From positions 1,831 through 65,830 of the forward strand of contig CAZKCH010000001.1 of NCBI GenBank assembly GCA_964551525.1: 64,000 bases of DNA, given 5' to 3'. The stretch comes from an uncultured Candidatus Saccharibacteria bacterium (GTDB taxonomy: Bacteria > Patescibacteriota > Minisyncoccia > Minisyncoccales > GWA2-46-15). Position 1 is the first letter of the stretch; every line of letters begins with the position of its first letter. The notes under the pieces were generated by a model. The model did not search any database. It had not been told where the DNA came from and saw only the letters and a program-made list of their open reading frames with translations. Positions 14,900 through 59,320 of the stretch are shown in pieces. The translations under genes and the position numbers were made by a program.

Positions 14900-14900
14900 A

Positions 14901-14930
14901 AATAAGCTCGCAGAGACCCGTTCTCTGCAA
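14901..14930 (+). repeat. REP element (hairpin cagaga-cccgt-tctctg) with conserved aagctcg prefix
   Basis: The same about 25 nt unit recurs at 15671-15692 and 59252-59312. It sits immediately after a stop codon. Confidence 0.7.
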
Positions 14931-14938
14931 ATCTATAT

Positions 14939-15664: not shown

Positions 15665-15670
15665 AAATAA

Positions 15671-15725
15671 GCTCGCAGAGACCCGTTCTCTGTAAAATCT
15701 ACAAAGAACGGGTCTCTGTTTTTCT
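15671..15725 (+). repeat. REP pair in inverted orientation (BIME-like), also terminator-like
   Basis: cagagacccgttc ... gaacgggtctctg is a perfect 13-bp inverted repeat around a 17-nt loop, followed by ttttt. Confidence 0.7.
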
Positions 15726-15788
15726 CTACTTACTCTTTTTGTTTTGGCTGAATTTAAGCTATAATAAGGTTGGATAACCTTCATCAAA

Positions 15789-27067: not shown

Positions 27068-27611
27068 TTCGGGGAAGAATTATTTTTGAGGATTTGATCC
27101 TGGTCCAGGATGAACGCTGGCGGCGTGGATAAGGCATGCAAGTTGAACGCTCACCTGATTTTTCGCAAGAAAAGTTGGGTGGGAGTGGCAGATTGGTTAG
27201 TAACACGTGGGTAACTTACTCCGAGGACAGGAATAGTCCGCCGAAAGGCGGGGTAATTCCTGATAGAAATGAGGGGTCGCAAGACATTCTCATTTAAAAC
27301 CCGTCCCGCAAGGGATAGGGGCCACGGAAAAGGCCTGCGGCCTATCAGCTAGTTGGTGAGGTAACGGCCCACCAAGGCAATGACGGGTAGGGGAAGTGAG
27401 AGCTTGTTCCCCAACAAAGACACTGAAACATGGGTCTTACTCCTACGGGAGGCAGCAGTCGAGAATATTCGGCAATGGGGGAAACCCTGACCGAGCGACG
27501 CCGCGTGAGTGAAGAAGGCCTTCGGGCTGTAAAACTCTTTTTTGAGGGAAGAATCCCGAGCGCAAGCGAGGGATGACGGTACCTCAAGAATAAGGGGATG
27601 CAAATTCTGTG

Positions 27612-28481
27612 GTCGATCCGCTCAAAATCGTAAGCGAAGATCGACGGGCGCAGAATAGTCGTGGTAACACGGCTTAAGTAAACTTGGCTCATATGCTGGA
27701 AGCTATTTAAGAAGCGGCATTAGCCATCGGGCTAATTTTCTTAATAGTAATCAGCAGGGAAGTTCGATATAATGGAGAAATGAACAAAAAACAAAGAGAC
27801 ATAATTCTCGGAACATTATTGGGAGACGGGTGGATCGAAAAACAAGGGTCCATTCGTTTCAAACAATGTCTAAAGCATAAAGAATATATCTTTTGGCTAT
27901 ACGGGGAATTAAAAAATCTTTGTCGTAGTTCTCCCACACAAAGACGAGACAATAAACAATGGTATTTCCAAACCAGAAGCAATGACGAAACGCGCTTTTA
28001 TCGATCTATTTTTTATCGGGGTGTTAAAAAACGAGTCCCGAAAAATATAGGAAAATTGATAAAATCTGCACTAAGTTTGGCTATCTGGTTCATGGATGAT
28101 GGAACAATAGATTGGAGAGAAAAAAGTCATTATGCTTTCCGTCTAACTACAAATTGTTTCTCGATGAGCGATAACCGACTATTAATTGAAATGCTGAAAA
28201 AGAGATTTGGCGTTAAAACAACGCTCCAAACAACATTGATTAGAGGAAAAAGATATCCAAGGATATATATCGGCAAAGATGGAAGAGGAAAATTCGCAAA
28301 TCTAATAGAACCATTCGTATTAAATTGTTTTCGTTATAAATTACCTCCATTTCTTCGTAACCCCTCAGAGACTGTTCGGTGATGAACCGACGTTAACGGT
28401 GAAACATATTATCCGTTAAAATACGCCGAGCCCCGTTTCAAAAAAACGGGTGATGGTATAGTCCAATAAAATTATTTATTA
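27612..28481 (+). mobile_element. 16S intron 1 (probable group I) inserted just upstream of the GCCAGCAGCCGCGG block
   Basis: About 870 nt with no 16S homology, between ...gcaaattctgtg and gccagcagccgcgg. Contains an HE ORF and the shared aacggtgaaa motif. Confidence 0.6.
27780..28382 (+). CDS. LAGLIDADG homing endonuclease (two-motif)
   Basis: ILGTLLGDGWIEK and IWFMDDGTID LAGLIDADG motifs. Located entirely within the 16S insertion. Confidence 0.75.
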   Translation: MNKKQRDIILGTLLGDGWIEKQGSIRFKQCLKHKEYIFWLYGELKNLCRSSPTQRRDNKQWYFQTRSNDETRFYRSIFYRGVKKRVPKNIGKLIKSALSLAIWFMDDGTIDWREKSHYAFRLTTNCFSMSDNRLLIEMLKKRFGVKTTLQTTLIRGKRYPRIYIGKDGRGKFANLIEPFVLNCFRYKLPPFLRNPSETVR

Positions 28482-29032
28482 GCCAGCAGCCGCGGTAAGA
28501 CAGAATCCCCAAGCGTTATCCGGATTTACTGGGCGTAAAGCGTCTGTAGGCGCCTTGTTGCATCTTTGGTTAAATTTTCGGGGCTCAACCCTGAAGCTGC
28601 CAAAGACATGGACAGGGTAGAGGGCGTTAGGAGTTGACGGAACGGTCGGTGTAGGGGTGAAATCCATTGATATCGACCGGAACACCAAAAGCGAAGGCAG
28701 TCAACTAAGACGACCCTGACGCTGAAAGACGAAAGCGTGGGCATAAAAAAGGATTAGATACCCTTGTATTCCACGCCCTAAACCATGGAGACTGGCTTCT
28801 TGAAGTGTCGACCCTTCAGGTGGCGAAGCTAACGCGTTAAGTCTCCCGCCTGGGAAGTACGATGGCAACATTAAAACTCAAAGGAATAGACGGGGACTCA
28901 CACAAGCGGTGGATCATGTGGCTCAATTCGACAACAAACGAGGAACCTTACCAGGGCTAGAAACCGTAGCGGACAGCTTACTGAAAAGCGAGCTTTCTCA
29001 CAAGGACCGCTATGGCAGGTACTGCATGGTTG

Positions 29033-29857
29033 ATCCCTAAGCTATTGCTGCTTGGGATACGACCCTTTTCGCCGTAAGGCGAATCGAAAAACCAGCTCAT
29101 AACGGCGAACCCCTAACCAAAAACTTATGGTAAAATGAACTATAAGAACTAAGGCGGGCAATGCCGTGGGAAGTACGAACACTAATTTTTGCAATTTCTT
29201 TAAGGGAGAAGAGAATGCTTATATTCTCGGCCTTTGGTGCGCTGATAGTTATTGGTGGTCAAGTTCAGTAGGATTAAGCAATACCAATCCATATCTGATC
29301 GAAAGAACTAAAAAGTTTTTAAGAAACTTTTTCCCGGAAGTAAGAATAAAATTTAACAGAAACCATATTTTTGTTAATAGCAGGCCATTATTAAGAGACT
29401 TCGTTATTGCTAAAAACAATCTTGATCGTCTTAAAAAACCAGGTATGATTAAGGCCTATTTCGCCGGCCGTTTTGACGGCGATGGTTCTGTAGACAAGGA
29501 TTTCAGAAAAGATTGCCGAATAGTTTATGGCAAGCTGAACGAAGCAGAAATGGATAAAAAGCTATTAAGAAGAATGGGAATCAGAAAAACAAAAATATAC
29601 TATTACAAAAGCGCAAAAACATTTTGCTTATATATATCTCGTTACGAAACGAAAAAATTCTAGACAATATTTATATTCATTCTACAAAGTTGCAAAAATT
29701 AGTGTCCGTACCCCGTAGAGACTTAACTCTCGCCAAGGACCAATTAAGAGAGTTAGATGGCGGAAAAACCAAAAACCGTCATAAAACGCTGGCCTCCGCA
29801 TAATTATATGCGGAAGATGGCATAGTCCATACTACAAGTAATTGTAAGAAAATATGG
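29033..29857 (+). mobile_element. 16S intron 2 (probable group I) inserted in the CATGGTTG|TCGTCAGC region (near E. coli position 1050)
   Basis: Exon sequence catggttg ... tcgtcagcaggtcccgtgagg is restored after removing about 825 nt. Contains an HE ORF and ccgtgggaag / aacggcgaa motifs. Confidence 0.6.
29166..29663 (+). CDS. LAGLIDADG-type homing endonuclease
   Basis: YFAGRFDGDGSV motif and a degenerate first motif YILGLWCADS. Located within the 16S insertion. Confidence 0.6.
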   Translation: MGSTNTNFCNFFKGEENAYILGLWCADSYWWSSSVGLSNTNPYLIERTKKFLRNFFPEVRIKFNRNHIFVNSRPLLRDFVIAKNNLDRLKKPGMIKAYFAGRFDGDGSVDKDFRKDCRIVYGKLNEAEMDKKLLRRMGIRKTKIYYYKSAKTFCLYISRYETKKF

Positions 29858-30412
29858 TCGTCAGCAGGTCCCGTGAGGGTCTCCCTTAAATGGGGAAACC
29901 TGCGCAACCCTTACTCTGTGTTTTAAATGTCACAGGGAACTGCCCGGGATAACTGGGAGGAAGATGAGGATGACGCCAAATCAGCATGGTCCTTGATGCC
30001 CTGGGCCGCACACGTGATACAATGGAGCCGACAATGGGTTTGCCAAGCCGTAAGGCGGAGCTAACCCCATCAAACGACTCCTTAGTTCGGATTGAGGGCT
30101 GAAACTCGCCCTCATGAAGCCGGAATCGCTAGTAATCGGGAATCAGCTATGTCCCGATGAATATGTTCCTGAGTCTTGTACTCACCGCCCGTCACGTGAG
30201 ACGAGCCGGGAGTGGCCGAAGGCGCCTGTAAGGGCGACTAAGCCAAACTCGGTGAGAAGCACGAAGTCGTAACAAGGCACGCGTAGCGGAAGCTGTGCGT
30301 GGATCATTACTTTTTTTCTAGACTTTTTGTCTAGGAGCGTCGATCATAGTTGAAAATTGAGAATTCTATTTTCAACTGCGGACAATTGACTGGAATGTCT
30401 TTAAACTACAGT

Positions 30413-34550: not shown

Positions 34551-34603
34551 TAACACGAGTATTTAGGATTTAGAAGTTAGAAGATAGAAAACGCCTGATT
34601 TCC

Positions 34604-34676: not shown

Positions 34677-34830
34677 CAGTAGTAGTTTTTTAGAATTTAG
34701 AGTTTAGTATTTAGAGTTTCATTTCCCAGGGGTGCCGGATCACCGCAGAGCGGGATCCCGTCTTACGGGATCACCGCGAAGCGGGACTCCGCTACGCGGA
34801 GGTGGCCAATCGGGACAAAAAATACAAAAA

Positions 34831-35079
34831 ATGTATACTGTTTATATCTTAAGAAGTTTAAAATCTAAAAGGTTCTATATTGGACAAACAAATAATATCG
34901 CGGATAGATTAAGAAGACATAATCGAGGATTGGTCAAATCAACAAAATGGTTTATACCTTGGGAAATAGTCATAACAGAAAACTTTAATAATAGAAGCGA
35001 CGCATATAAACGCGAACAAGAGATCAAAAAATTTAAGTCCGGAATATTGTTTAAAAAAATAATTACCAGGGATGGCTGA
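34831..35079 (+). CDS. GIY-YIG nuclease domain protein (small, standalone)
   Basis: YTVYILRS...KRFYIGQTNNIADRLRRHN is the GIY-YIG core. Likely start is the ATG at 34831 (the track ORF starts at 34732 inside a direct-repeat region). The 3' end overlaps tRNA-Tyr by 14 nt. Confidence 0.55.
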   Translation: MYTVYILRSLKSKRFYIGQTNNIADRLRRHNRGLVKSTKWFIPWEIVITENFNNRSDAYKREQEIKKFKSGILFKKIITRDG

Positions 35080-35138
35080 GCGGTTAAGGCGCTGGTCTGT
35101 AAAACCAGTCTAGGTAGGTTCAACTCCTACTCCCTGGA
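35066..35138 (+). tRNA. tRNA-Tyr (anticodon GUA), type I (short variable arm), C1:G72
   Basis: Acceptor ccaggga/tccctgg, D-arm with GG, anticodon stem ctggt/accag with loop ctgtaaa, 5-nt variable loop, T-arm gtagg-ttcaact-cctac. Confidence 0.65.
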
Positions 35139-35167
35139 TCAACTACTACCAAACAAAAGATCGCCAA
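35136..35167 (+). repeat. direct repeat copy 1 (att-like) at tRNA-Tyr 3' end
   Basis: ggatcaactactaccaaacaaaagatcgccaa. A near-identical copy lies at 37752-37783. Confidence 0.55.
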
Positions 35168-35282
35168 GAAGGCGATTTTTTGATATGCAACATCATTAAA
35201 TTAGTTCGCTAGACTTAGTTGGTTATCTGTGCTAATTTTCTTATAGTAAACCTTCGATGTTTCACGGTTCAAGGAGGACCAT

Positions 35283-35912
35283 ATGAAACTCAAACTTTCC
35301 GACCTGATCGCTCTTTTGTACTTTGCGGCTATAACCGCATTCATCTTCCTGGCCAAGGACACTTTCATCTATCTGACCAAGACCTATCCTTACCCGATGG
35401 GTTTTATCAAGGTCGGGCTACTGGCCACCTTCGGCGAATGCCTGAAATACAGACTGACCAATCACAAATGGATCCCGTACAAGATCTGTCTTCGTTTCCT
35501 TGTCTGGGGGCTCTTTGGCATCTGGTTCGCCGCTGCCTTCCCGTATTCTGACGGAGGCGTTGTCGCCCTCGACAACGGCGGGCTATGGCCTGGCGCCTCG
35601 GCGCTATCCAAAAGCGCCTGGATCAACATCCTCGGCGGTTACGCCTTCTTCATGATGTTCATCCACTACTGGATGGATACGATGATTGCCGAAGGACCGT
35701 GCTGGCCATGGAAGATTTTCGGGACACCACAGTCGGTAAAGTGGGCGAAGATTGTCTTCATCGCCATGTTCGTCTGGTGGTTGCCGGCCCATACCTTCAC
35801 CTTTTCCCAACCGCCGGAATGGCGAGTCGTGATCGCCGCCTATCTTTCGGTCAGCCTCGGCCTGATCCTAGCCTTTGCATCAGGTTTCGAGGTGAGGAAA
35901 ACTATCACCTAA
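35283..35912 (+). CDS. polytopic membrane protein, foreign (high-GC) origin
   Basis: By eye about 52-55% GC versus about 40% around it, with GC-rich codon usage. Preceded by a canonical SD (aaggagg, 5-nt spacer), unlike other genes here. 5-6 TM helices. Confidence 0.5.
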   Translation: MKLKLSDLIALLYFAAITAFIFLAKDTFIYLTKTYPYPMGFIKVGLLATFGECLKYRLTNHKWIPYKICLRFLVWGLFGIWFAAAFPYSDGGVVALDNGGLWPGASALSKSAWINILGGYAFFMMFIHYWMDTMIAEGPCWPWKIFGTPQSVKWAKIVFIAMFVWWLPAHTFTFSQPPEWRVVIAAYLSVSLGLILAFASGFEVRKTIT

Positions 35913-36189
35913 ACAAGTAAGAGACGCATCGTAACGGTGCGTCTCTTTACTTACTTAAATTCTAAACAGGTTCTAACGTCGTCCCGTAGGCAGGACCAAA
36001 AAACTTTATTAGCGACTAAGTGATTGAGTGATTAGGACAATCGCCTCTATGCCGTTTCTCAGGCTGGGCAGTTTTTTTGACCAAAAATATGATATAATTA
36101 ATTTAATAAAAGAGTTGATGAACACGTTCGTGAAATTAAGGGCATTTTAACATAACACTTGACGATCACTACTTGACAACATATCATCT

Positions 36190-36909: not shown

Positions 36910-36958
36910 GTCGTCCCGTAGGCAGGATACGAGTTTATTAGCAATTAGTTATTAGTTT
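36910..36958 (+). repeat. intergenic repeat unit (gtcgtcccgtaggcagga ... tttattagcaattagttattag)
   Basis: Same unit at 35978-36036. Related copies at 37737-37754 and 38600-38625. Confidence 0.5.
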
Positions 36959-36970
36959 TTAGCACTGACG

Positions 36971-37010
36971 AAACCGCCTTTTTATTAGGGCGGTTTTTTG
37001 GTATAATTTA
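36971..37010 (+). promoter_or_regulatory. hairpin/T-run terminator fused to extended -10 promoter (TGGTATAAT), leaderless start
   Basis: aaccgcc...ggcggtt stem, tttttt, tggtataat, then ATG 6 nt later. The same architecture (GGTTTTTTGGTAnAGT) recurs at 37821-37877, 38896-38937 and 39402-39437. Confidence 0.55.
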
Positions 37011-37013
37011 GAT

Positions 37014-37643
37014 ATGAGAACATATACTTTTATTGATGCCTCCAATTTATTTTACGGCGGGGAAAAGAATTTAGGATGGAAAATCGACTATCAAAAGCTT
37101 TTGTATTATTTAAAAGAAAAATATGGAGTTTCTCGGGTCTTATATTTTGGCGGTATAGAATTGCATGGTTTTAAGTTTGATTATCTCAAAGAGGAAACTG
37201 TGCCGGTTGAAAAAGCGGAAAACTATCTTTCCTCATTAGTCAAAGAGAAGGGTGATAAATTTACTGAAGCAATATTGTTATTAATTAACCGACATCTACA
37301 ACGAGCTCGTTTTTACTCAAAACTACAGAAATTCGGCTATGATCTCCATCTGAAGCCGGTTAAACTTTATGAACAGGAAGATGGCACGACTAAAAGAAAA
37401 GCGAACTGCGATGTCGATATGACATTCCATCTAATGAAGGAAAAAGATAATTTTGACAGAGCGCTTATTCTTTCCGGCGACGGAGACTTTTTACCAGTTT
37501 TGAAATTCCTAAAACAAAATGGTAAAGAGATAATCGTTCTGGCTCGTGGTTCGCGAACCGCCAAAGAAATCAGGCAATTTGCTGGTAGTAATTTTCGAGA
37601 TTTTGAATATCTAAAATATCTTCTAAAAATGGACTTGAAATAA
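37014..37643 (+). CDS. NYN-domain (LabA/PIN-like) predicted ribonuclease
   Basis: FIDASNL N-terminal Asp block and a LSGDGDFLPVL block typical of NYN/LabA-like proteins. Confidence 0.6.
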   Translation: MRTYTFIDASNLFYGGEKNLGWKIDYQKLLYYLKEKYGVSRVLYFGGIELHGFKFDYLKEETVPVEKAENYLSSLVKEKGDKFTEAILLLINRHLQRARFYSKLQKFGYDLHLKPVKLYEQEDGTTKRKANCDVDMTFHLMKEKDNFDRALILSGDGDFLPVLKFLKQNGKEIIVLARGSRTAKEIRQFAGSNFRDFEYLKYLLKMDLK

Positions 37644-37751
37644 AAACGAAGCGGACTCGTATAGAATCCGCTCCACGTTTAGTAGTTTCATTATACCTCG
37701 ACTGGCAACAGTGTCAACCTCCTAAAAAGGTCTAATGTCGTCTCGTAGAGA

Positions 37752-37783
37752 GGATCAACTACTACCAAACAAAGAATCGCCAA
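37752..37783 (+). repeat. direct repeat copy 2 (att-like)
   Basis: ggatcaactactaccaaacaaagaatcgccaa matches the tRNA-Tyr 3' flank (35136-35167) at 30 of 32 positions. Confidence 0.55.
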
Positions 37784-37820
37784 ACCCGCCCGCAACACTT
37801 CGTGTAGCGATGTGGGTAGG

Positions 37821-37877
37821 GGGGCGGCCTGCCCCGTAGTGAACTTGTTCTACTACAGGGTTTTTTGGTAGAGTACA
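37821..37877 (+). promoter_or_regulatory. hairpin/T-run + extended -10 (TGGTAGAGT) module
   Basis: ggggcggcctgcccc and gtagtgaac..gttctactac hairpins, tttttt, ggtagagt, then ATG 7 nt later. Confidence 0.5.
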
Positions 37878-37881
37878 ATAT

Positions 37882-38508
37882 ATGACTAGAAAAATTCATA
37901 AGAACTATTTTGATATAGTAATACTGCCAACAAAAGAAATTGGAGATTATTCTATTGCTCTAAGTAAACGGCTGCATAAATATGGATCAAATTCAATTTT
38001 AGGCAGAAAATCCTTTTTGCCCCATATTTCTCTTTATCACATTTCGATAAAAAAGAGGGATTTCGGGAATTTTATTGCTGAAATAGAGAAGATAACAAAT
38101 GATTTTAAGACGGGGCAGCTGGAAATCAAAGACCTGATATTATGGAAAGGCCATCGTTCGGTTCTTCTAATGACGAACAAACCGAAGTGGCTAAAAAATC
38201 TACACCTAAAAATAATAAAAGGGACATTAAAATATTTTAACTGGGATTACGGTATAGAGAAACTATGGAATCTTGATCACTGGTCTAAACTTATGCAGAA
38301 AAACATAAAACAATACGGAACGCCATTGGTAGGGAGATATTTTATGCCACACATCACATTAGGTGTATTAAATGATAAGAAGGGAGTAGTAAAGTTTTTT
38401 AACAAACTGAAGCTTAAAAAATATAAATTCAATCCTGTTTGTATCTACGTTTGCGAAATTGGCGAAGATCATACTTGTCAAAAAATAGTAAGAAAGATTC
38501 GTTTTTAA
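37882..38508 (+). CDS. 2H phosphoesterase superfamily protein (LigT/CPDase-like)
   Basis: Two H-x-S/T-x motifs (PHISLYH, PHITLGV) with appropriate spacing. Confidence 0.6.
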   Translation: MTRKIHKNYFDIVILPTKEIGDYSIALSKRLHKYGSNSILGRKSFLPHISLYHISIKKRDFGNFIAEIEKITNDFKTGQLEIKDLILWKGHRSVLLMTNKPKWLKNLHLKIIKGTLKYFNWDYGIEKLWNLDHWSKLMQKNIKQYGTPLVGRYFMPHITLGVLNDKKGVVKFFNKLKLKKYKFNPVCIYVCEIGEDHTCQKIVRKIRF

Positions 38509-38640
38509 CTTAGATTGTTCTTAAACGGGTCAACCCTTCAGTGTGATTCAGGGCCGGCTCTTTGATATGACTCAGGGCAAGTAGAGAAGGTCATGAAAGT
38601 GGCTAAGTGATTAAGTGGTTGAGTGGCCAAAACCAGAGAT

Positions 38641-38669
38641 TTGACAGCGATTATCTAAAGAATATAATG
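38641..38669 (+). promoter_or_regulatory. canonical sigma70-type promoter (TTGACA-17-TATAAT)
   Basis: ttgacagcgattatctaaagaatataat, 8 nt upstream of the Zn-ribbon ORF ATG. Confidence 0.5.
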
Positions 38670-38676
38670 GAAACGT

Positions 38677-38850
38677 ATGATGATAATTAAGTGCAATATA
38701 TGTAAAAAGACGATAAAGGGCAATGATCCCGTAACGGCAAGCGGGGGATTTGCCTCGAGAGTTGAATTATGCGAAAAATGCGGTTTGCCGATAATCAAAT
38801 TCTTGAAAAAACATAAATTTATAGCGGGCGGGACGCCCGATATATCGTAA
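38677..38850 (+). CDS. small zinc-ribbon protein (57 aa), not in ORF track
   Basis: MMIIKCNICKKT...VELCEKCGLP carries two CxxC pairs. Consensus promoter immediately upstream. Confidence 0.4.
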   Translation: MMIIKCNICKKTIKGNDPVTASGGFASRVELCEKCGLPIIKFLKKHKFIAGGTPDIS

Positions 38851-38895
38851 TCGCTATTAAAGAAAAACGATAGAGATTTCATCGCGGAATTTATC

Positions 38896-38937
38896 TCGTA
38901 TAAACCCTGTATTTACGCGGGGTTTTTTGGTAGAGTA
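38896..38937 (+). promoter_or_regulatory. hairpin/T-run + extended -10 (TGGTAGAGT) module
   Basis: Stem around ccctgtatttacgcgggg followed by ttttttggtagagt. Confidence 0.45.
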
Positions 38938-38954
38938 AAAAATAGAAATAAACC

Positions 38955-39368
38955 ATGAATATTAAACTAGCGACAGAAATAATTTTTCTACTCTGCATCA
39001 CGACTTTAGTTGTGACCATAATATTATCCAAATTATTTAGAGTAGAGCTTAAAAACACCGACCCCTCGGATATACCACCGGCGATGTGGTATATCGCAAT
39101 AATATCCGTAGTTTTGTTAGCTGCCGAAGGTACGGCGTGGTATTTTGAATCGCCAGAAACGGTTCCTAATGCGAAAAACGGTTTTCTGTTTGGACTTATG
39201 GCTGCCACCGTTGGTTTTATTAGCGACATACTTCTTTTAATTCCGCATAAGAATGGATCTAATATTTTGTTGGGCTATTATACTAAACCATGGTATTGGG
39301 CGGCATTTATCCTAATTTTAATCGTCTGCACCTTAGTTGGTTTTATAATGGCCAAAAGGGGCATATAA
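38955..39368 (+). CDS. hypothetical 4-TM membrane protein
   Basis: Four hydrophobic helices. No recognisable domain. Confidence 0.35.
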   Translation: MNIKLATEIIFLLCITTLVVTIILSKLFRVELKNTDPSDIPPAMWYIAIISVVLLAAEGTAWYFESPETVPNAKNGFLFGLMAATVGFISDILLLIPHKNGSNILLGYYTKPWYWAAFILILIVCTLVGFIMAKRGI

Positions 39369-39401
39369 TCCTTCGATGAAGTTTATGGTGAGCTTGTCGA
39401 A

Positions 39402-39437
39402 CCGCTCAGGACAAAAAGGCGGTTTTTTGGTAAAGTA
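39402..39437 (+). promoter_or_regulatory. hairpin/T-run + extended -10 (TGGTAAAGT) module
   Basis: ccgc..gcgg stem, tttttt, ggtaaagt, then ATG 7 nt later. Confidence 0.45.
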
Positions 39438-39443
39438 AGCAAT

Positions 39444-40040
39444 ATGATAAAGGCAGCGATATTCGACCTTAACGGAATATTTATTCAAGGCCCAAGATTG
39501 AGCGATAGATTCAAGGAGATTTTTGGTATTGAAACAAAAGATTTCTTGCCCGTGTTAAAAGAGATCATGGCAAAGATAAGAAAACCAAATGCGGGGAGTG
39601 CTTTTAGCCATTGGAAACCATATTTGGAGAGATGGAATGTCAGTCTGACGGAAGAACAGTTCCTTGATTTTTGGTTCGGTGCTGAAAAAGAAATTCCAGA
39701 ATTAATTGAATTGGCAAAACAGATAAAAACGAAAGGTGTTAAAGTGTTTATCCTGTCAAATAATTTTGCCGAAAGAGCCGATTATTATAAAAAGAGTTCT
39801 CCGTTCTTAACAGAAATTCCTGATAAAGTTTATTATTCTTGGCAAACGGGTTTCGTCAAACCGGACCCACAAGCATTCAAGAATCTGTTAACCGAGAACA
39901 ATCTTGAACCCGAGGAATGTATTTATTTTGATGATTTAGAAGAAAATATTAAAGTGGCAAACGACTTAGGAATGAAGGCCTTCCTTTATAATAACGTTAT
40001 CGGCTTAGAGGAAGCCCTGAGGAACAATCGGGTAATCTAA
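39444..40040 (+). CDS. HAD-superfamily hydrolase (subfamily IA-like phosphatase)
   Basis: AIFDLNGIF (motif I variant DxN), ILSNN (motif II-like) and YFDDLEENI (motif IV). Confidence 0.55.
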   Translation: MIKAAIFDLNGIFIQGPRLSDRFKEIFGIETKDFLPVLKEIMAKIRKPNAGSAFSHWKPYLERWNVSLTEEQFLDFWFGAEKEIPELIELAKQIKTKGVKVFILSNNFAERADYYKKSSPFLTEIPDKVYYSWQTGFVKPDPQAFKNLLTENNLEPEECIYFDDLEENIKVANDLGMKAFLYNNVIGLEEALRNNRVI

Positions 40041-40141
40041 TTCATCAAACAGGTTTCCAGCCTACGGCTGGTCAACCGAAGCAAGGGGCGAGCTGTCAAT
40101 CCCGTATTCAAAGCTTTAATATAAAGAAACAAACCGTATTT

Positions 40142-40957: not shown

Positions 40958-42073
40958 ATGACTACTGAAGAACGGCTTGATCTCGTCAAACAAGTAGGGG
41001 AGGAGATTACCACCGAAGAAGAGCTGCGGCGGCTTTTAGAAACCGAAAAGAACTTGGTTGCCTATGACGGCTTTGAGCCCTCGGGCCAGATTCACATTGC
41101 CCAAGGTCTTTTACGCGCCATCAATGTCAACAAAATGATTAAGGCCGGCATCAAGTTTAAAATGCTGGTGGCTGACTGGCATGCGATGTGTAATGACAAA
41201 ATGGGCGGCGATCTGGAAAAAATTAAAATCGTGGGCCAATATTTCATTGAGGTTTGGCGGGCTTACGGCATGGATTTGAAAAACGTGGAGTTTGTTTGGG
41301 CTTCGGACTTAGTTAAAAACAGCAAATATTGGGAATTAGTTTTAAAGGTGGGCCGGACTAATAAACTGGCGCGCTTTATCAGAACCGCGGAATTCATGGG
41401 CCGAGAAGCAGCCGCGGAAACCTTGTCAGCGGCTCAGTTGTTTTATCCCTGCATGCAAATTGCTGATATTTTTACTCTGGGCGCCAAGATCACTCAATTA
41501 GGCATGGACCAGCGCAAAGTTAATATGTTGGCCCGGGAGATCGGATCCCAGCTCGGTTTTTGGAAACCAATAGTAATTTCACACCACATGCTCATGGGTT
41601 TGGATCAACCCCCCTCCGCCAATGCTTCGGAGGGCGAGGCCGCCATTGATAAAACCGCCAGGACCATAGCCCTCAAGATGTCTAAATCGAATCCTGATAA
41701 TGCGATTTTTATGACTGATTCAAAAGAAGAGATTGAAAGAAAAATTAACAAGGCCTGGTGCCCGGAAGGGGAGAGCCAAGAAAACCCGATTCTGGAATAC
41801 TGCCGTTATATAATTTTTGAATCCCTGGACCGACTTGGAACCAAAGAGATAAAAATTGAAAGACCGGAAAAATTCGGCGGCACCATTACGGTCAAATCCT
41901 ATGCTAAATTAGAAACGCTTTTCAGCCAGAAACAAATCCATCCCCAAGATCTGAAAAAAACAGTCGCCGAACTCTTAAACAAACTAATAGCGCCGGTCAG
42001 AGAACACTTTATCAAGGACAAGAGAGCGAAAAAACTGCTTGAACAAGTGACAGGTTTTGCCGTAACAAGATAA
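40958..42073 (+). CDS. tyrS: tyrosine--tRNA ligase, archaeal/eukaryotic type
   Basis: Strong collinear similarity to Methanocaldococcus-type TyrRS: YDGFEPSGQIHIAQG (HIGH), KMSKS, IERPEKFGGTITVKSYAKLETLFSQKQIHPQDLKKTVAELLNKLIAPVRE. Confidence 0.85.
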   Translation: MTTEERLDLVKQVGEEITTEEELRRLLETEKNLVAYDGFEPSGQIHIAQGLLRAINVNKMIKAGIKFKMLVADWHAMCNDKMGGDLEKIKIVGQYFIEVWRAYGMDLKNVEFVWASDLVKNSKYWELVLKVGRTNKLARFIRTAEFMGREAAAETLSAAQLFYPCMQIADIFTLGAKITQLGMDQRKVNMLAREIGSQLGFWKPIVISHHMLMGLDQPPSANASEGEAAIDKTARTIALKMSKSNPDNAIFMTDSKEEIERKINKAWCPEGESQENPILEYCRYIIFESLDRLGTKEIKIERPEKFGGTITVKSYAKLETLFSQKQIHPQDLKKTVAELLNKLIAPVREHFIKDKRAKKLLEQVTGFAVTR

Positions 42074-42154
42074 GTGGTATAATATTTTAATACCCAAAGG
42101 TCGACAATAATAGTGATTAGTTATTAGAAATTAGTTTTTTAACTTTTTACAAAT

Positions 42155-42925: not shown

Positions 42926-43805
42926 TCAAAAATACTCTTAGATTTAAACATTCCTATGAATACCATTCTTTATACTCTCACCAAAAGAAGCGGCTAATTC
43001 CTTAGGATTTTTTATTGCCTAAGCGACCGCTTCGAAGCGGTTTTTTCTTTTCTCGCGCCGGCATTGACGCTGAATAAAAAATTGGCGGTAAAACCGGATT
43101 GAGAACCAAAAAACGAAAGAAAAAGAACGGACTTTGACAACTTAATAAAATTCTAGCTAATTAAGTAAAAACTCCTTAAATTTACAGACGAATCTGGTGA
43201 ATCTAAGGAGGGTAAGAAATTGTGGTTACAACAGGTTGATGGCGGATGCCTTGGAAAGTCGAGGCGACGAAGGACGTGGCGTGACTGCGATAAGCTCCGG
43301 GGAGGTGTCAAGCAACCCGTGAACCGGAGATGTCCGAATCTGGAAACAGGGCCGCGCAAAACGCGGTCGACCCCGAGCGCAAGTGAGGGGTAGCGTACCT
43401 GGGGAAGTAAAACCTTTCAGTACCCAGAGGAAAATAAAACAATGTTTCGTGTTTTACACGAGATGATTCCCTTAGTAGCGGCGAGTGAAAAGGGAAATAG
43501 CCTAGAGTTCTAAGCTTCGCAAGAAGCTTGGAGCAGTTAAAAGAGAGCGACGCCTGAAGTTTTCCCCTTTATCCCGAGAGAAATCGAGGGACAAGGAGAA
43601 AACTTTGGAAAGAGTAAAAAAATTGATTGTTAGCCAAAGTCCCCTGGAAAGGAACACCAAAGAGGGTAATAGTCCCGTAGGCGAAAACGATCAATCTCTT
43701 AGTCTCTTAGTCCCGCAAGGGACAAATCTTAAGTACTATAGGGCATGATAAATCTATAGGAAGTCGGCTGAACTACTTTCAAGCCAAGGCTAAATACTCG
43801 ACTTT

Positions 43806-43844
<39 letters not shown>

Positions 43845-45279
43845 CAGCCCGGCGAGGGCGATGAAATAGTACCTGAAACCATCTAACCTACAAAGAGTCG
43901 GAGCCCCACAGAGCGCAAGCTTTTGCGGGGTGACGGCGTACTTTTTGGAGAACGAGCCAACGAGTTGTTGTGCATAGTTGTCTAACCCCGTTAAACGGGG
44001 GAAGGCAAAGCGAAAGCAAGCGTTAATAGCGCGACTAAAACTGTGCACCCCAGACCCGAAGCCAAGCGAGCTTGCCAGCGTCAGGGTGAATCCCGCCGAA
44101 GGGCGAGAAGAAGCCCGTACCTGTGAGCCGTGCAATACTCTAGGACGAACGGTGGCACGAAGAGAAAACCTAAACGAGCTTGGTAATAGCTGGTTCTTCC
44201 CGAAATAGCTTTTGGACTAGCTCCGCCGTATTATATTTTTCAGGGGTAGAGCACTGAAAAGAATATCGTGGCTTTTAGCCAGGTATTCTTATCAAACTCC
44301 GAATACTGAAAAATTCAGGCGGAAGTAAGAACCCGGGCGCTAAGGTCCGGGCTCAAAAGGGAAACAGCCCAGACCTTCATCTAAGGCCCCCAAGTTTAAA
44401 CTAAGTGCTAGGAAGGAAGTGATTTTCCTATGATAGTCAGGAGGTGAGCTTAGAAGCAGCTACCCTTTAAAAAGTGCGTAACAGCTTACTGATTAAGGAA
44501 TTTCGCACCAAAGATTAACGGGGCTCAAGTTTAACGCCGAAGATAAGGGCCCGCCCACATCTGCAAAGTTGTGGCGGGCGGTAGGGAAGCGTCCTTTGTT
44601 CAGCGAAGCCCCTCCGTAAGGTCGGGGTGGAGAACAAGGGAGTGAGAATGTTGGCATGAGTAACCGCAATCCGGGTGAGATCCTCGGACACCGAAAGCCC
44701 AAGATTTCCTTGGCAATGATTTTCAGCCAGGGGTTAGGCGGCCCTAACACTGCGACCAAATGGCCTCAGTGGATGGACAGCCGGTTAATATTCCGGCCCT
44801 TCGGTTGTTTTTCAAAAGGGTGACGCAATCAAAGTTCTTGATAGGATTATTGGATTTCCGAGAGTCGAGATTTATCTCGACCGTTTCAAGAATCAGATTG
44901 CCAAGAAAAACCCTGAGATTTAAAACAACCGGATCCGTATCGCAAACCGACACAGGCAGGCAGGTCGAGTAGACCAAGGTGAACGGGTGAAAGCTCCTGA
45001 AGGAACTCGGCAAAAAAGCTACCCGTAAGTTCGCAAGATGGGTTGCCCCGACCCGCAAGGGTTATGGGGCCGCAGCTAACGATTCCTTAGCGACTGTTTA
45101 TCAAAAACACAGGCTCCTGCTTAACTCGTAAGAGGAAATATAGGAGCCGAGACCTGACCAGTGCTGGAACGTCAAACTCGACGATTTTACCGCAAGGTAA
45201 AACTGATCGAGCTAAGCGCCAGTGAACGTCCGCTCTAACTCTGAGAGTGTTAAAGTAGCGTAACCCCTTGTCAGGTAAG

Positions 45280-46035
45280 AGATTTGCCTGTGCTCACAGC
45301 AGTGAGCAATAAATCCGGCTAATAACGGTGAAATCCTCGTTAGAGTCCCGCATCAAGGGCGGGACGTTGAAAACAAGATAATACCGTGGGAAGTCCCGTT
45401 AAACGGGACCCCGTAACGACTGACGTCGCCGATAGCTATTGGCGACCGAGATAGTAGATGCTATGATGAAATAACATTTACGGATTTAATGAAAAAAATA
45501 CTATCATATGCCGGCACTAAACAATTCTAAATCAAAGAAAAATCTACCAGTATATATTTCTGGTTATGTAGACGGGGAAGGATGCTTTAGTGTTTCCTTC
45601 TCAAAAAGAGAAAAACTGTCAGTGGGATGGGAAACAAAACCAAGTTTTGCCGTAGGGCAAAACTATGACCGATCAGAAGTAATTAAATTACTAAAGCTTT
45701 ATTTAAATTGCGGAAGTATAAGACGTGATTATTCTGACAAAACATTGAAATTCGAGGTCCGTAGTTTAAATGACCTGGTAGAAAAAGTAATTCCTCATTT
45801 TCGTCAGTACCCTTTATTATCAAATAAGCGAAAAGATTTCGATTTGTTTGTAAAAATATGCGGGCTGATGAAAAAAGAAAAACACCTTCAAAGAAGGGGA
45901 TTAAAAAAGATTGTCAATTTCGCGTATCAAATGAACGCAAGCGGTAAACGAAAATACAAAAAAGAGGAAATTACAAAAGAATTGTCTATTTGAAGATATA
46001 GTCTGCACCATAAGAAATTATGAGACAATGTGAAG
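45280..46035 (+). mobile_element. 23S intron (probable group I) in domain IV, GGGTAAG|TTCCGACC site (about E. coli 1917-1923)
   Basis: About 756 nt with no 23S homology restore the universal sequence when removed. Contains ctaataacggtgaaa and taataccgtgggaag motifs, shared with the other introns. Confidence 0.6.
45508..45993 (+). CDS. LAGLIDADG homing endonuclease
   Basis: LPVYISGYVDGEGCFSVSF is a classic LAGLIDADG motif. 161 aa, within the 23S insertion. Confidence 0.8.
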   Translation: MPALNNSKSKKNLPVYISGYVDGEGCFSVSFSKREKLSVGWETKPSFAVGQNYDRSEVIKLLKLYLNCGSIRRDYSDKTLKFEVRSLNDLVEKVIPHFRQYPLLSNKRKDFDLFVKICGLMKKEKHLQRRGLKKIVNFAYQMNASGKRKYKKEEITKELSI

Positions 46036-46568
46036 TTCTGACCCGCATGAAAGGTTTCACGACTAAGGAACTGTCTCCAGGAGTTGCCCGGTGAAAATGC
46101 AGTAGGGGTGAAGATGCCCCTTACCTGCGGCTAGACGGAAAGACCCCGAGAGCTTCACTGTAAGGTGGTATTGGATTTTGGGTTTGGATGCGTAGCGTAG
46201 TAGGGAGGATTTGAAGTCCCGTTTTTGGACGGGATGGATCCGACAATGAAACACCTATCTTTTAAACTCTCAATTCTAATTCCGCTGATGAAGCGGATAA
46301 CAGTGCCACCCCGGCAGTTTAAGTGGGGCACTTGCCTCCCAAAAAGTACTGGAGGCGTTTAAAGGTCGGCTAGCTCCGGATGGAAATCGGAGCGATAGGG
46401 CAAAGCCATAAGCCGGCTTTACTGCAAGGCGGATATGCCGCGCAGTTGGGAAACCAGAACTTAGTGAACCGATGCGTCATAGTAGAAGGCGCAAAGATCA
46501 ACAGACAAAAGTTACCTCGGGGATAACAGGCTAGTAGGGCCCGCGAGTCCACATCTACGGCCCTGTTC

Positions 46569-46601
<33 letters not shown>

Positions 46602-46730
46602 GTGAAGCAGCTCCCAAGGGTCTGGCTGTTCGCCAGTTAAAGTGGTACGTGAGCTGGGTTCAAACCGTCGCGAGACAGGTTGGTCCCTATCTACCGCAGG
46701 CGTTGAGTCTTGAGGAGAGTCTCGGACAGT

Positions 46731-47527
46731 AAATAAAATTGCTGCTTCAGAGAGTAATCTCTGATGACAAATTGGCTAATAACGGTGAAACCTTCATTGG
46801 AATTATGCGGAAAGCGTATTTTTCCGCTTGTAGGTCCAACGGAAAAATGATATGATTTTCTTGAGGACCGCATAATTTTAAATAAGGTAATACCGTGGGA
46901 AGACAAACAAAAATACCCAAAACAGATTTAGCTTATATCGCTGGTTTTTTGGACGGTGACGGAAGTGTTATAGTCCAAATGAAAAACAGAAGGCACAATC
47001 CAAGAGGATGGCGATTAATGTTCACAATCTGCTTTTATCAGGATACGCGTCATGAAAAACCGCTATCCTGGATAAAAAAGACATTAGGAATAGGTTATAT
47101 TTCTCGCCGGAAAGATGGAATTACCGAACTAAGAATTAATGGTTTTGGAAGAACCAAAGAGATTCTGGAAAATTTATCACCATATATCAAGTTTAAGAAA
47201 AAACAGGTAAACATTTTACTAACGATCTTAAAAAAGATCGTAGGCAAGAATTTTCCTGATTTGACCAGAAAACAGCGGTTAAAAATAGCAGATATGATTT
47301 ATGAATCAAGACAGTTAACCTATCAATCTGGTTGGAAAAAATTCTCTAAGTCAAAAAGGGAATTAAGAGAAAGATTGGGTTTTTAATTAAAGTTTGTCCC
47401 CGTAACGACTTTCCGCATTAATGCGGAGGATGGCATAGTTTTATACGCCATAATACGCCAACCACGCGTTCAATTTATGAACGCGCGGAAGATATAGTCT
47501 AAGCTTGTAGAAATACAAGGCAACTTG
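46731..47527 (+). mobile_element. 23S intron (probable group I) inserted in the sarcin-ricin loop (AGU|ACGAGAGGACC)
   Basis: Removing about 797 nt restores ggacagtacgagaggacc. Same conserved core motifs (ggctaataacggtgaaa, aataccgtgggaag). Confidence 0.6.
46895..47386 (+). CDS. LAGLIDADG homing endonuclease
   Basis: LAYIAGFLDGDGSVIVQ motif. 163 aa, within the 23S insertion. Confidence 0.8.
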   Translation: MGRQTKIPKTDLAYIAGFLDGDGSVIVQMKNRRHNPRGWRLMFTICFYQDTRHEKPLSWIKKTLGIGYISRRKDGITELRINGFGRTKEILENLSPYIKFKKKQVNILLTILKKIVGKNFPDLTRKQRLKIADMIYESRQLTYQSGWKKFSKSKRELRERLGF

Positions 47528-57964: not shown

Positions 57965-59278
57965 ATGTTGTCTAAATTTTGCCGAAAACCGATTTTCACC
58001 TCGCTTTCGCCCAATACCGAAAAGGACGACATCGCCTTAGCATTTAAACTAATTTCCCAGCCACGGAAATGGATCAATGACGAAAAACCCACGATCGTAG
58101 AAAATCCGTCGTTGATGTTAGAGAATAAATTTAAGGAATACTTATCAGTAAAACACGCCTGTGCCTTCAACTCTGGCCGGACGGCCTTCTTGGCAATTCT
58201 GAAGTGTTTGAATTTTGAGCCCAATAGTGAGGTTTTAATTCAGGGATTTACCTGTAACGCCGTGGTCAATCCGATTTTAGCCGCTGGCCTGAAACCGGTT
58301 TTTGTTGATATTGATGAAAACACGCTCAATATCAGCCCGCTCGACTTGGAAAAGAAACTGACTGATAAAAGCCGCGCTGTTATTATCCAACACACCTTCG
58401 GTCTGCCTGCCGACATAGAAAAAATCCAGGAGATTTGCCAGAAATATAATTTAATTTTGATAGAGGATTGCGCTCACTCGCTTGGTGCCCTTCACGCCTA
58501 CGGCGCTCAGGGCAAGCTGCTCGACACATTCGGCCAAGCCGCCTTCTTTAGTTTTGGCCGCGACAAAGTTATTTCTTCTGTCAGCGGCGGCATGGCTGTT
58601 ACCAACGACGATCAACTAGCGCAAAAATTAAAAGAGTTTCAAGATAATTTGCCCGAACCCTCTTGTTGCTGGATTTTTCAACAATTATTGCATCCGATCT
58701 TAACTAATTTTCTAGTCATGCCTTTATATAATTTCTGCTGTCTGGGCAAATGGACTTTGATATGCCTTCAAAAAATCGGCCTGCTCTCTAAGGCGGTTTC
58801 TAATCAGGAAAAACAAGGAAAATTGCCGAGAAATTTTGCCCGAAAAATGCCTGCGGTTTTGGCAATAATAACTCTGCGCCAGATGGAAAAACTGAAAAAA
58901 TTTATCAGCCACCAGCGCCAGATCGCCAAACTTTACGATCAAAACCTGGCCGGTCTTGATTTAACGCTGCCGTCAAACACGAATAACCGGATTTATCTAC
59001 GCTATCCGCTTTTGCTCAAAAACATTGATACCGATAAGATATTAGATAAGGCGCGCAAAGAAAAAATCTTCCTTGATGATGGCTGGCGTAAAGCCGTGAT
59101 TGTGCCGCCGGACACAAATCAGGAAAAAATGGGCTATCAAGCAGGGGATTGCCCGATCGCGGAAAAAGTCGCCAGAAATATCATCAATTTACCGACCCAC
59201 ATCAACATTTCCGAGCAAAAAGCCCAAAGAATCATCAATTTCCTCAAGAATAAGCTCGCAGAGACCCGTTCTCTGTAA
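57965..59278 (+). CDS. DegT/DnrJ/EryC1/StrS-family PLP-dependent aminotransferase with extended C-terminal domain
   Basis: Collinear DegT blocks (FTCNAVVNPI, EDCAHSLGA, FSFGRDKVISSVSGG with the PLP Lys). The last 7 codons (LAETRSL) are encoded by a REP element. Confidence 0.7.
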   Translation: MLSKFCRKPIFTSLSPNTEKDDIALAFKLISQPRKWINDEKPTIVENPSLMLENKFKEYLSVKHACAFNSGRTAFLAILKCLNFEPNSEVLIQGFTCNAVVNPILAAGLKPVFVDIDENTLNISPLDLEKKLTDKSRAVIIQHTFGLPADIEKIQEICQKYNLILIEDCAHSLGALHAYGAQGKLLDTFGQAAFFSFGRDKVISSVSGGMAVTNDDQLAQKLKEFQDNLPEPSCCWIFQQLLHPILTNFLVMPLYNFCCLGKWTLICLQKIGLLSKAVSNQEKQGKLPRNFARKMPAVLAIITLRQMEKLKKFISHQRQIAKLYDQNLAGLDLTLPSNTNNRIYLRYPLLLKNIDTDKILDKARKEKIFLDDGWRKAVIVPPDTNQEKMGYQAGDCPIAEKVARNIINLPTHINISEQKAQRIINFLKNKLAETRSL

Positions 59279-59315
59279 AATTAAGCAGAACCCTACAGAG
59301 ACCCGTTCTCTGTAA
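59252..59315 (+). repeat. two tandem direct REP copies (hairpin cagagacccgttctctg x2)
   Basis: Same unit as at 14901 and 15671 (aagctcgcagagacccgttctctg). The first copy overlaps the stop of the preceding gene. Confidence 0.7.
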
Positions 59316-59320
59316 ATTAT

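Follow-up and report, generated by a model that had tools for sequence, protein, structure and literature searches.

A hairpin-T6-extended -10 element in front of shuffled accessory genes of a CPR bacterium is a candidate portable expression joint

The 64-kb stretch of DNA analysed here (the window; all statements on its core genes are limited to these 64 kb) comes from a Roizmanbacteria-like bacterium of the Candidate Phyla Radiation (CPR) and contains, downstream of a tRNA-Tyr gene, an array of small genes in which the same short sequence, GGTTTTTTGGTANART, is present in four exact copies, each behind a hairpin and shortly before a start codon. This raises the question of what such a site is: an ordinary promoter, a small mobile repeat, the target of a recombinase or a unit with a function of its own. 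We favour, at a probability of roughly 60%, the reading that each site is a compact portable expression joint, predicted from its sequence to combine a terminator hairpin, a run of six T residues (T6) and an extended -10 promoter for leaderless mRNA. The parts are known, i.e. the intrinsic terminator, the extended -10, the leaderless start and moron-like cassettes; what appears to be new is their fusion into one conserved portable family marking shuffled cassettes across CPR phyla. We found no description of this module in the literature on CPR promoters, terminators, leaderless genes and integrons, and to our knowledge there is almost no experimental information on where transcription starts and stops in CPR/Patescibacteria or on how genes are exchanged in these tiny genomes.

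The four copies of GGTTTTTTGGTANART in the 64 kb start at 36992, 37859, 38921 and 39421, all on the plus strand, and none is expected (mean 0.00, maximum 0 in 100 shuffles). Allowing up to three mismatches adds exclusively matches with three mismatches, 12 being found versus 10 expected; as there are no intermediates between the exact and the chance-level matches, the four copies form a discrete class. In an alignment of the four regions the flanks are unrelated, and only GG-T6-GG-TA-n-A-r-T and some A/T positions ahead of the ATG are identical. A stem-loop precedes each copy, its 3' arm running into the T-run. This confirms the initial annotation, made from the letters of the sequence, which had described a hairpin, a T-run and an extended -10 element in front of each of four genes with the ATG 6-18 nt downstream.

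Module 1 (36970-37013) comprises a hairpin at 36970-36997 (AAACCGCC...GGGCGGTTT; -16 kcal/mol, z -4.75), T6 at 36994-36999, TGG at 36999-37001 and the -10 hexamer TATAAT at 37002-37007, followed after 6 nt by the ATG (37014) of the gene for a 209-residue NYN/LabA-like protein (cassette 1, 37014-37643; GC content at third codon positions (GC3) 0.319). In module 2 (37815-37881) two hairpins (37815-37833 and 37834-37859, the latter being part of a compound structure with a weak z-score) precede T6 (37861-37866), TGG and TAGAGT (37869-37874), and the gene starting 7 nt further on at 37882 encodes a 208-residue protein resembling 2H phosphoesterases/2'-5' RNA ligases (LigT-like; cassette 2, 37882-38508; GC3 0.316). 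Module 3 (38902-38954; hairpin 38902-38925, about -11 to -13 kcal/mol; T6 38923-38928, TGG, TAGAGT 38931-38936) is separated by 18 nt from the ATG (38955) of the gene for a 137-residue YhhN-like membrane protein (cassette 3, 38955-39368), and module 4 (39399-39443; hairpin 39399-39425, AACCGC...GCGGTT, -9.3 kcal/mol, 8 bp, 11-nt loop; T6 39423-39428, TGG, TAAAGT 39431-39436) by 7 nt from that (39444) of the gene for a 198-residue HAD-family hydrolase (cassette 4, 39444-40040). All these modules and genes are on the plus strand.

All four modules present a GC-rich stem-loop directly followed by a U-tract of at least 5-6 residues, as is characteristic of intrinsic terminators, and a TG one base upstream of a TAnnnT hexamer, as is characteristic of extended -10 promoters (TGGTATAAT, TGGTAGAGT in two modules and TGGTAAAGT), while the -35 position falls inside the hairpin. 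A -10 element 6-8 nt before the start codon and the absence of a Shine-Dalgarno (SD) sequence, the signature of leaderless genes, are found for three of the four genes, module 3 having the longer gap. Leaderless mRNAs are found in Actinobacteria and Deinococcus with the -10 element 6-7 nt before the start codon. The modules resemble these and extended -10 promoters in having TGnTAnnnT without a recognisable -35 box, a -10 6-7 nt upstream of the ATG and no SD; they differ from them in that the TG comes from the end of a U-tract of fixed length (T6), so that terminator and promoter share bases, and in that the fused form is restricted to accessory cassettes. The terminator-promoter fusion proposed by the initial annotation fits this anatomy and recurs in independent contigs.

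Is the module simply the promoter type of this genome? The hairpin-T6-GG prefix is absent from all other promoter-like sites in the window. Core genes, among them those for rpsB, tsf, RF, L25, GreA, LysRS, SerRS, Mur ligases, GAPDH and PPDK, carry a plain -10 without the prefix, and such a plain hexamer stands 6-8 nt before the ATG of the genes for LysRS, MreC, a class-I (Trp/Tyr-type) aminoacyl-tRNA synthetase (aaRS), a canonical LigT and others. A crude window-wide scan for hairpins followed by a T-run was too noisy to serve as a terminator census. The aaRS (40958-42073) is at most 72% identical to its counterparts in metagenome-assembled genomes of Candidatus Roizmanbacteria; it is nearly as close to Woesearchaeota and other DPANN archaea (57-61%, versus 63-72% for other Roizmanbacteria). 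In 904 kb from 60 Roizmanbacteria loci near this aaRS gene, TTTTTTGGTANART has 0 copies, ruling out a generic Roizmanbacteria promoter, and the genes of the array are missing near the aaRS in these 60 species, save for a distant (27%) NYN homologue. The statement of the initial annotation that the module is not seen upstream of core genes therefore holds for the window and for these 60 related genomes, and the ubiquitous promoter type it had named as the alternative was found neither in the window nor in the 904 kb of Roizmanbacteria relatives.

The same initial annotation had highlighted leaderless starts. The spacing is indeed present at three of the four genes, but it is not special to them. 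The 3' end of the 16S rRNA (30290-30314) reads GGATCATTACTTTTT / GGATCATTAC and has no CCUCC anti-SD motif, an SD-like sequence precedes only 5 of 53 window genes, and TANNNT stands 5-9 nt before the start codon of 22 of the 53. The near-absence of SD sequences matches the 16S rRNA without CCUCC; loss of the anti-SD motif was reported for some CPR lineages (PMC9297842). Taken together, the 16S rRNA without anti-SD, the few SD sequences and the 22 of 53 genes with TANNNT show the leaderless-type spacing to be a general habit of the genome, so that what is peculiar to the array is the hairpin-T6-GG prefix only. That the sites are due to chance, to a recent local duplication or to the ordinary promoter type of the genome has a negligible probability: the spacing between -10 and ATG, which is general in the window, speaks for such an explanation, but no copy is expected by chance, the other promoters of the window have no prefix, the relatives have no copies, and the four flanks are unrelated, yet the same module accompanies orthologous genes in other phyla.

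The distribution outside the window shows the modules being one sequence family. Metagenomes were searched with the pattern AACCGC-N5-20-GCGGTTTTTTGGTANART, which fixes one stem type (that of modules 1 and 4) and T6, resulting in 110 matched contigs, a number whose chance level is estimated roughly from viral controls: in a viral collection the real pattern has three matches, while two controls in which the -10 was scrambled have one and 0. The bare 16-mer was rejected as a probe of the viral collection, as it hits at least 120 stretches with a single match each among those listed, which look like chance. In the metagenome matches the loops vary widely, the -10 is TAGAAT, TATAAT or TAAAAT, the ATG follows most often after 5-9 nt, and the matched contigs hold additional modules with other stems. 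Since the pattern had fixed both stem and T6, their conservation was judged from the non-seed modules and from loci fetched by protein homology only. Eight non-redundant loci of the latter kind (64 kb) contain 16 modules, of which 15 have an abutting hairpin and 12 an ATG 6-7 nt after the -10; among the non-seed modules the hairpin abuts in 59 of 73, with a 3' arm that is mostly GGCG(G/A). A hairpin-first scan leaving the linker free is dominated by T6+GG (14) and T6+GA (7), the TG of the extended -10 thus consisting of the final T of the run and the G that follows it, while the same scan of the 904 kb of Roizmanbacteria loci gives scattered combinations only and no such class. Across 168 unique modules (metagenome loci, homology-fetched loci and the window), an ORF (open reading frame) starts within 60 nt of the -10 in 131, and in 67 of these 131 it does so after 5-9 nt. 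The family consensus is (A)AA(T/C)CGCC-loop-GGCGG-T6-G(G/A)-TA(G/T/A)AAT. As the modules share this consensus stem (CGCC/GGCGG), they are not independent inventions but, judged by their sequences, members of one family present in at least 110 metagenome contigs.

This contradicts the initial annotation in one point, as it had taken the differing stems to argue for functional fusions rather than copies of one repeat: five nearly identical modules lie within 5 kb of one contig (L204), directly after tRNA-Met/Met/Asp, and three near-identical ones in another (L323). The genes after 98 metagenomic modules are accessory and encode NUDIX proteins, transposases of insertion sequences (IS), cupins, hydrolases, GNATs, methyltransferases and Zn-ribbons. 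A large subgroup of the pattern matches (L202, L218, L223, L228, L234, L238 and similar) is an IS left end with a DUF772 + DDE_Tnp_1 transposase (AACCGCTCTGGAGACCAGGGCGGTTTTTTGGTATAAT-N6-ATG); the hairpin/T6/extended -10 design hence serves a transposase gene as well, one that probably does not belong to CPR.

An exact form conserved to this degree might be the signature of a regulon, according to which T6-GG-TAnAGT is recognised by a particular sigma factor or DNA-binding regulator and the hairpin is an ordinary terminator that happens to lie upstream. The length of T6 and the G at -13 are invariant beyond what a generic extended -10 needs, and the hexamer is TAGAGT/TAGAAT rather than the TATAAT common at other promoters of the window. 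We nevertheless regard this as very unlikely, since the constant contact between hairpin and T-run in both the homology-fetched and the non-seed set argues for one composite unit, the downstream genes share no common function, the motif fits the housekeeping extended -10 consensus and no candidate regulator is linked to the modules.

Multi-copy intergenic families with hairpins are known from Correia elements of Neisseria and from repetitive extragenic palindromic (REP) sequences and bacterial interspersed mosaic elements, which terminate or stabilise transcripts, Correia elements also creating promoters. The modules are comparable in being a short multi-copy intergenic family common to related genomes, with hairpins and a plausible terminator/promoter activity. 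A self-spreading repeat of this kind, or of the type of miniature inverted-repeat transposable elements, would be a unit of about 35-90 nt proliferating with the help of some transposase, its terminator and promoter effects being by-products. Near-identical copies in single genomes (the five of L204 and the three of L323) and the family-wide conservation of the stem sequence would be explained by this, as would the finding of the same intergenic blocks in contigs with different flanking genes: intergenic regions of the array share 20-39-nt blocks with intergenic regions of other CPR contigs, while spacers outside the array do not. Moreover, the window encodes a Y1 (IS200/RAYT-like; RAYT, REP-associated tyrosine transposase) transposase at 14939-15664. 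We consider such an origin unlikely, as every copy with a nearby downstream ORF is co-oriented with it and about half have the -10 6-7 nt from the ATG, which is not expected of random insertion. In contrast to Correia and REP elements, the modules are strictly oriented and phased to the downstream ATG, have no recognised terminal inverted repeats, target-site duplications or linked transposase, and stay with particular genes across phyla, the T6/-10 part remaining with a given gene in distant genomes while the hairpin changes. The Y1 gene is flanked by a different hairpin repeat, CAGAGACCCGTTCTCTG, and not by modules. Copies of TAAAAATAAGCTCGCAGAGACCCGTTCTCTG lie on both sides of it (14897-15735) and two more (59249-59316) after a gene ending at 59278; they suggest a REP/RAYT-type system that belongs to this genome itself and is distinct from the array modules.

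The genes behind the modules differ from the rest of the window. Their GC3 is 0.32-0.38 versus 0.473 ± 0.042 for 41 other window genes; they are accessory cassettes of foreign composition, acquired horizontally and standing in a variable array that follows tRNA-Tyr. Homologues of the NYN protein at high identity number 2923; the best 120 of these are 72-100% identical, one of them being from Nealsonbacteria. In most of the fetched NYN contexts, including the one from Nealsonbacteria, a variable hairpin and TTTTTTGGTAG(A/G)AT-N6-7-ATG (T6-GGTAG(A/G)AT) precede the gene, and the same 3' flank follows it in every context examined. One contig (L333) has a T5-GATATAAT variant and another (L334) a weaker variant, in which hairpin and T5 stand before the gene although the upstream neighbour is divergent, suggesting that the hairpin is part of the portable unit.

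Comparisons between related contigs show where homology begins and ends. Between the window and L333, DNA homology (84%) extends over 36989-37729, from the last stem bases and the T-run through to just beyond the promoter of an antisense RNA gene convergent with NYN; its start lies 3 nt before the GG-T6 motif. It resumes over 38637-38822, in a Zn-ribbon cassette, and the gap between these two blocks identifies the LigT-like cassette (37730-38636) as an insertion relative to L333. Homology of the LigT-like gene to L323 sets in precisely at GGTTTTTTGGTAGAGT (37859) and does not continue past the stop codon. L323, a relative in which synteny is conserved (PMT, YbaK, tRNA-Ile, tRNA-Ala, tRNA-Tyr), has a different cassette set after tRNA-Tyr, and intact modules stand behind this tRNA, ahead of the LigT-like gene and ahead of the gene following it; module 2 of the window corresponds to the AAAGAATCGCCAAA...GGGGCGG (AAAGAATCGCCAAAG...GGCGG) hairpin of L323 and L316 with extra inserted stem-loops. 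In the near-identical strains L316 and L312 (flanks 99.3-99.9% identical) a NUDIX cassette is replaced by a two-gene segment, identity stopping just after ...GGGGTTTTTTGGTAGAATA and picking up at CGGTTTTTTGGTAGGAT, so that the swap is bounded by the motif. Gene order differs between related contigs. The cassette organisation suggested by the initial annotation, and the shuffling for which it had proposed a synteny comparison, are thereby borne out: homology begins at or 3 nt before a module, and an exchange, an insertion and a different cassette set are seen in L316/L312, L333 and L323, respectively.

A further feature of the arrays is their position. They begin right after tRNA genes in the window and L323 (tRNA-Tyr), in L204, L254 and L328 (tRNA-Asp) and in L284, L297 and L324, and homologues of the LigT-like gene lie just downstream of a tRNA gene in L328 (tRNA-Asp) and L324 (tRNA-Gln). 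The module-like element reported after tRNA-Tyr by the initial annotation exists (35154-35188, plus strand; hairpin 35154-35182, T6 35176-35181, GATATGC), although its -10 is degenerate (TTTTTTGATATGC; AAAAGATCGCCAAGAAGGCGATTTTTTGATATGC); at this position L323 has an intact module (AAAATCGCCAAAGAGGCGGTTTTTTGGTAGGAT). A direct repeat of 32 nt (30/32 identical, 22 nt exact; 35136-35167 and 37752-37783, plus strand), whose first copy begins with the last 3 nt of tRNA-Tyr, consists of the tRNA-Tyr trailer and the 5' arm of the module hairpin and brackets a 2.6-kb segment with the membrane protein gene memb209, the Gp49/HTH pair and NYN with its antisense RNA. This arrangement resembles a scar left by an insertion beside the tRNA, without an integrase. 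Fragments of tRNA 3' ends lie between units in L204 and L333, and copies of tRNA 3' ends precede the L204 modules.

These findings bring the array close to islands growing by tandem accretion next to tRNA genes, with which it shares the location immediately 3' of a tRNA, the direct repeat beginning in the tRNA 3' end, the tRNA 3'-end fragments between units (L204, L333) and the content varying between relatives; unlike such islands, its units are about 0.5-1.3 kb with one or two genes each, no integrase is encoded in the window and just 3 nt of the tRNA, together with its trailer, fall within the repeat. They also raise the possibility of a site-specific recombination site of the integron-like or tRNA-targeting type, with the hairpin and the cores GGTTCTAAC ... 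GGTAGAAT forming an attC/att-like site at which a dedicated recombinase inserts single-gene cassettes by tRNAs. The start of the arrays at tRNA genes, the tRNA 3'-end copies before the L204 modules, the tRNA-Tyr-derived repeat bracketing the 2.6-kb insert and the gene-sized swaps bounded by the motif fit this, and we read GGTTCTAAC and GGTAGAAT as an imperfect inverted repeat pair similar to RYYYAAC/GTTRRRY. As in integron cassettes, tandem single-gene units of unrelated accessory function are joined by a hairpin-forming junction, the ORF begins a few nt after the (3') core and the order is shuffled between genomes. Yet the array has no RYYYAAC/GTTRRRY cores proper, the candidates TTCTAAC and GGTAGAA missing the attC consensus (6/7 and 5/7) with very asymmetric arms, and its hairpin resembles an RNA terminator with a U-tract. 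The conserved part moves at the 5' end of the gene, as a predicted promoter, while attC is found at the 3' end and integron cassettes, unlike those of the array, are usually promoterless. No Rfam family matches, Pfam scans of the window show no IntI integrase by the array and no tyrosine or serine recombinase (ORFs of at least 90 residues and the smaller array genes), and the gene calls for roughly 100 kb of related contexts include no recombinase either. We therefore judge a dedicated recombination site to be quite improbable.

The likeness to phage morons drawn by the initial annotation, alongside that to integrons, holds for the logic and not for membership: neither an integrase nor the attC consensus nor phage genes were found in the window. 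Morons (Hendrix/Juhala) are reportedly genes that sit as insertions among other genes and bring along a sigma-70 promoter and a factor-independent terminator of their own. Similarly, single genes of the array are each bracketed, at the sequence level, by their own promoter and terminator-type hairpin, are foreign in composition, unrelated in function and present or absent between otherwise collinear relatives. In contrast to morons, the array sits by tRNA genes in a cellular CPR chromosome with no prophage around, a single conserved sequence family unites its terminator with the promoter that follows, and leaderless transcripts are predicted for it. Genes for phage structure or replication are absent from the window, the neighbours being tRNAs, the aaRS and rRNA genes, and the Gp49-like toxin paired with an HTH (helix-turn-helix) antitoxin is the sole phage-named match.

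We suggest a model of the expression joint according to which the Rho-independent terminator hairpin (A-rich 5' flank, GC stem CGCC/GGCGG, variable loop) would stop or insulate upstream transcription, T6 would serve as the U-tract of the terminator and its last T together with the next G as the TG of the extended -10 (TGGTAnAnT). An extended -10 does without a -35 box, the place of which is occupied by the hairpin. Transcription would begin 6-7 nt past the -10, which for three of the four genes means the A of the ATG, resulting in a leaderless mRNA that would suit an organism whose 16S rRNA has no anti-SD. A 5'-terminal AUG may allow robust translation of a newly arrived gene on such ribosomes, and a terminator directly in front may keep read-through from occluding the promoter or from producing transcripts with an internal AUG, each gene thereby becoming a self-sufficient insulated transcription unit. 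The T6/-10 part would move with the downstream gene, the hairpin being a variable junction. As homology between differently ordered arrays begins and ends at the joints, these conserved stretches of about 16-35 nt probably act as (micro-)homology patches for cassette exchange.

Several points weigh against this model. Termination and promoter activity are read from the consensus, hairpins 2 and 4 are no more stable than shuffles in local windows, modules 2 to 4 carry TAGAGT or TAAAGT as their -10, hexamers weaker than TATAAT, and module 3 leaves an 18-nt leader without SD. Functional need accounts neither for the fixed length of T6 nor for the conservation of the G at -13, features that rather speak for a common ancestry or for recognition of a more specific kind. 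The absence from core genes rests on 64 kb of the source genome, and in two contigs (L335/L336) the NYN gene has no module and stands in the core-gene context gyrB-secE-nusG-L11. Homology boundaries at the motif are partly expected, because it is the only sequence that unrelated cassettes share, and breakpoints alone do not prove recombination there.

If the joint works as proposed, it would provide a concrete promoter/terminator grammar for organisms without anti-SD that need transcripts beginning at AUG, a sequence tag by which accessory genes of recent acquisition could be recognised in CPR metagenome bins, and a candidate way by which genes stay expressible wherever they land, as the joint would insulate, express and give recombination a foothold. 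Synthetic constructs, too, could make use of the 45-nt unit as a compact part combining insulator and promoter. More tentatively, CPR might share a pool of plug-and-play single-gene cassettes (NYN with antisense RNA, 2H phosphoesterase, Zn-ribbon, NUDIX, HAD and others), each with a standard 5' joint and many with a 3' motif, AAACAGGTTCTAAC...GGAGC, the joints being homology or recognition sites for insertion, swap and accretion downstream of tRNAs across CPR phyla. Such a pool, which we regard as possible rather than probable, would be a functional analogue of an integron without a linked integrase, working e.g. via homologous recombination after natural transformation or an unrecognised recombinase.

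This 3' motif is a second conserved intergenic sequence, AAACAGGTTCTAACGTCGTCCCGTAGGCAGGA (35964-35995, plus strand; partial copies at 36910-36927, 37737-37754 and 40047-40060), of the form AAACAGGTTCTAAC(A/G)TCGTCCAGTnCCnGGAGC, which is also present in L265, L222, L219, L275, L299 and L323. It is co-oriented with the genes, starts 0-65 nt past the upstream stop codon and often lies just before a hairpin-T6 module. By pattern, 38-49 unique copies are found in the fetched CPR contigs, seven of them in the 7.6-kb L265, and none of the long form in the 904 kb of Roizmanbacteria loci. Co-orientation and the place after stop codons fit an RNA-level or oriented site better than a DNA-uptake sequence. 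A boxA/nut-like antitermination signal was rejected for GGTTCTAACA, as the genuine rRNA leaders of the window carry GATCTTTGAAAA and GGACTTTGACAA instead. An origin from a tRNA T-arm remnant is suggestive in L240, L333 and L204; against it, a pyrimidine occupies position 57 of what would be the T-loop, the stems are unpaired and no partial tRNA match is obtained at E <= 5. A reading of the motif as an attC core was considered as well and not established. Neither the modules nor the AAACAGGTTCTAAC motif match anything in Rfam at gathering or permissive thresholds.

Other genes of the array complete the picture of its composition. The Zn-ribbon gene (38677-38850, plus strand, 57 residues; 38641-38850 with promoter) has no hairpin-T6 prefix but its own promoter, TTGACA-16-TATAAT (38641-38668), ending 8 nt before the ATG, and in L333 it directly follows NYN. 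The antisense RNA gene convergent with NYN (37640-37717, minus strand) has a perfect TTGACA-16-TATAAT promoter (-35 at 37717-37712, -10 at 37695-37690), contains the conserved sequence ACTAAACGTGG and ends in a 13-bp hairpin (37676-37646) whose T-run reaches the NYN stop codon. It adjoins NYN in all seven distinct contexts examined, with four compensatory base pairs in seven sequences, and has no Rfam family at gathering or permissive thresholds; judged from this arrangement, the two look like a toxin-antitoxin-style or cis-antisense pair with a NYN RNase. The membrane protein gene memb209 (35283-35912) represents the opposite extreme in composition (53% GC, GC3 0.71) and has a strong AAGGAGG SD sequence, unusable by a ribosome without anti-SD; its probable source is a donor outside CPR.

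The surrounding region shows further insertions. Both the 16S (27090-30314) and the 23S (43219-46735) rRNA genes are interrupted by insertions encoding LAGLIDADG endonucleases (27780-28382 and 29166-29663 in 16S, 45508-45993 in 23S), and the 5S gene is separated from the end of the 23S match by another LAGLIDADG ORF (46895-47386). Protein-coding genes separate 16S, the tRNA-Ile/Ala pair and 23S, and a small GIY-YIG gene (34831-35079) is located between tRNA-Ala and tRNA-Tyr. Short arrays of a TTAG-type repeat of about 7 nt (e.g. TATTAGCAATTAGTTATTAGTTTTTAG) sit after tRNA genes and upstream of several promoters (34560-34590, 34688-34714, 36936-36962 and 42108-42148), one block being 86% identical in L333 (1667-1707).

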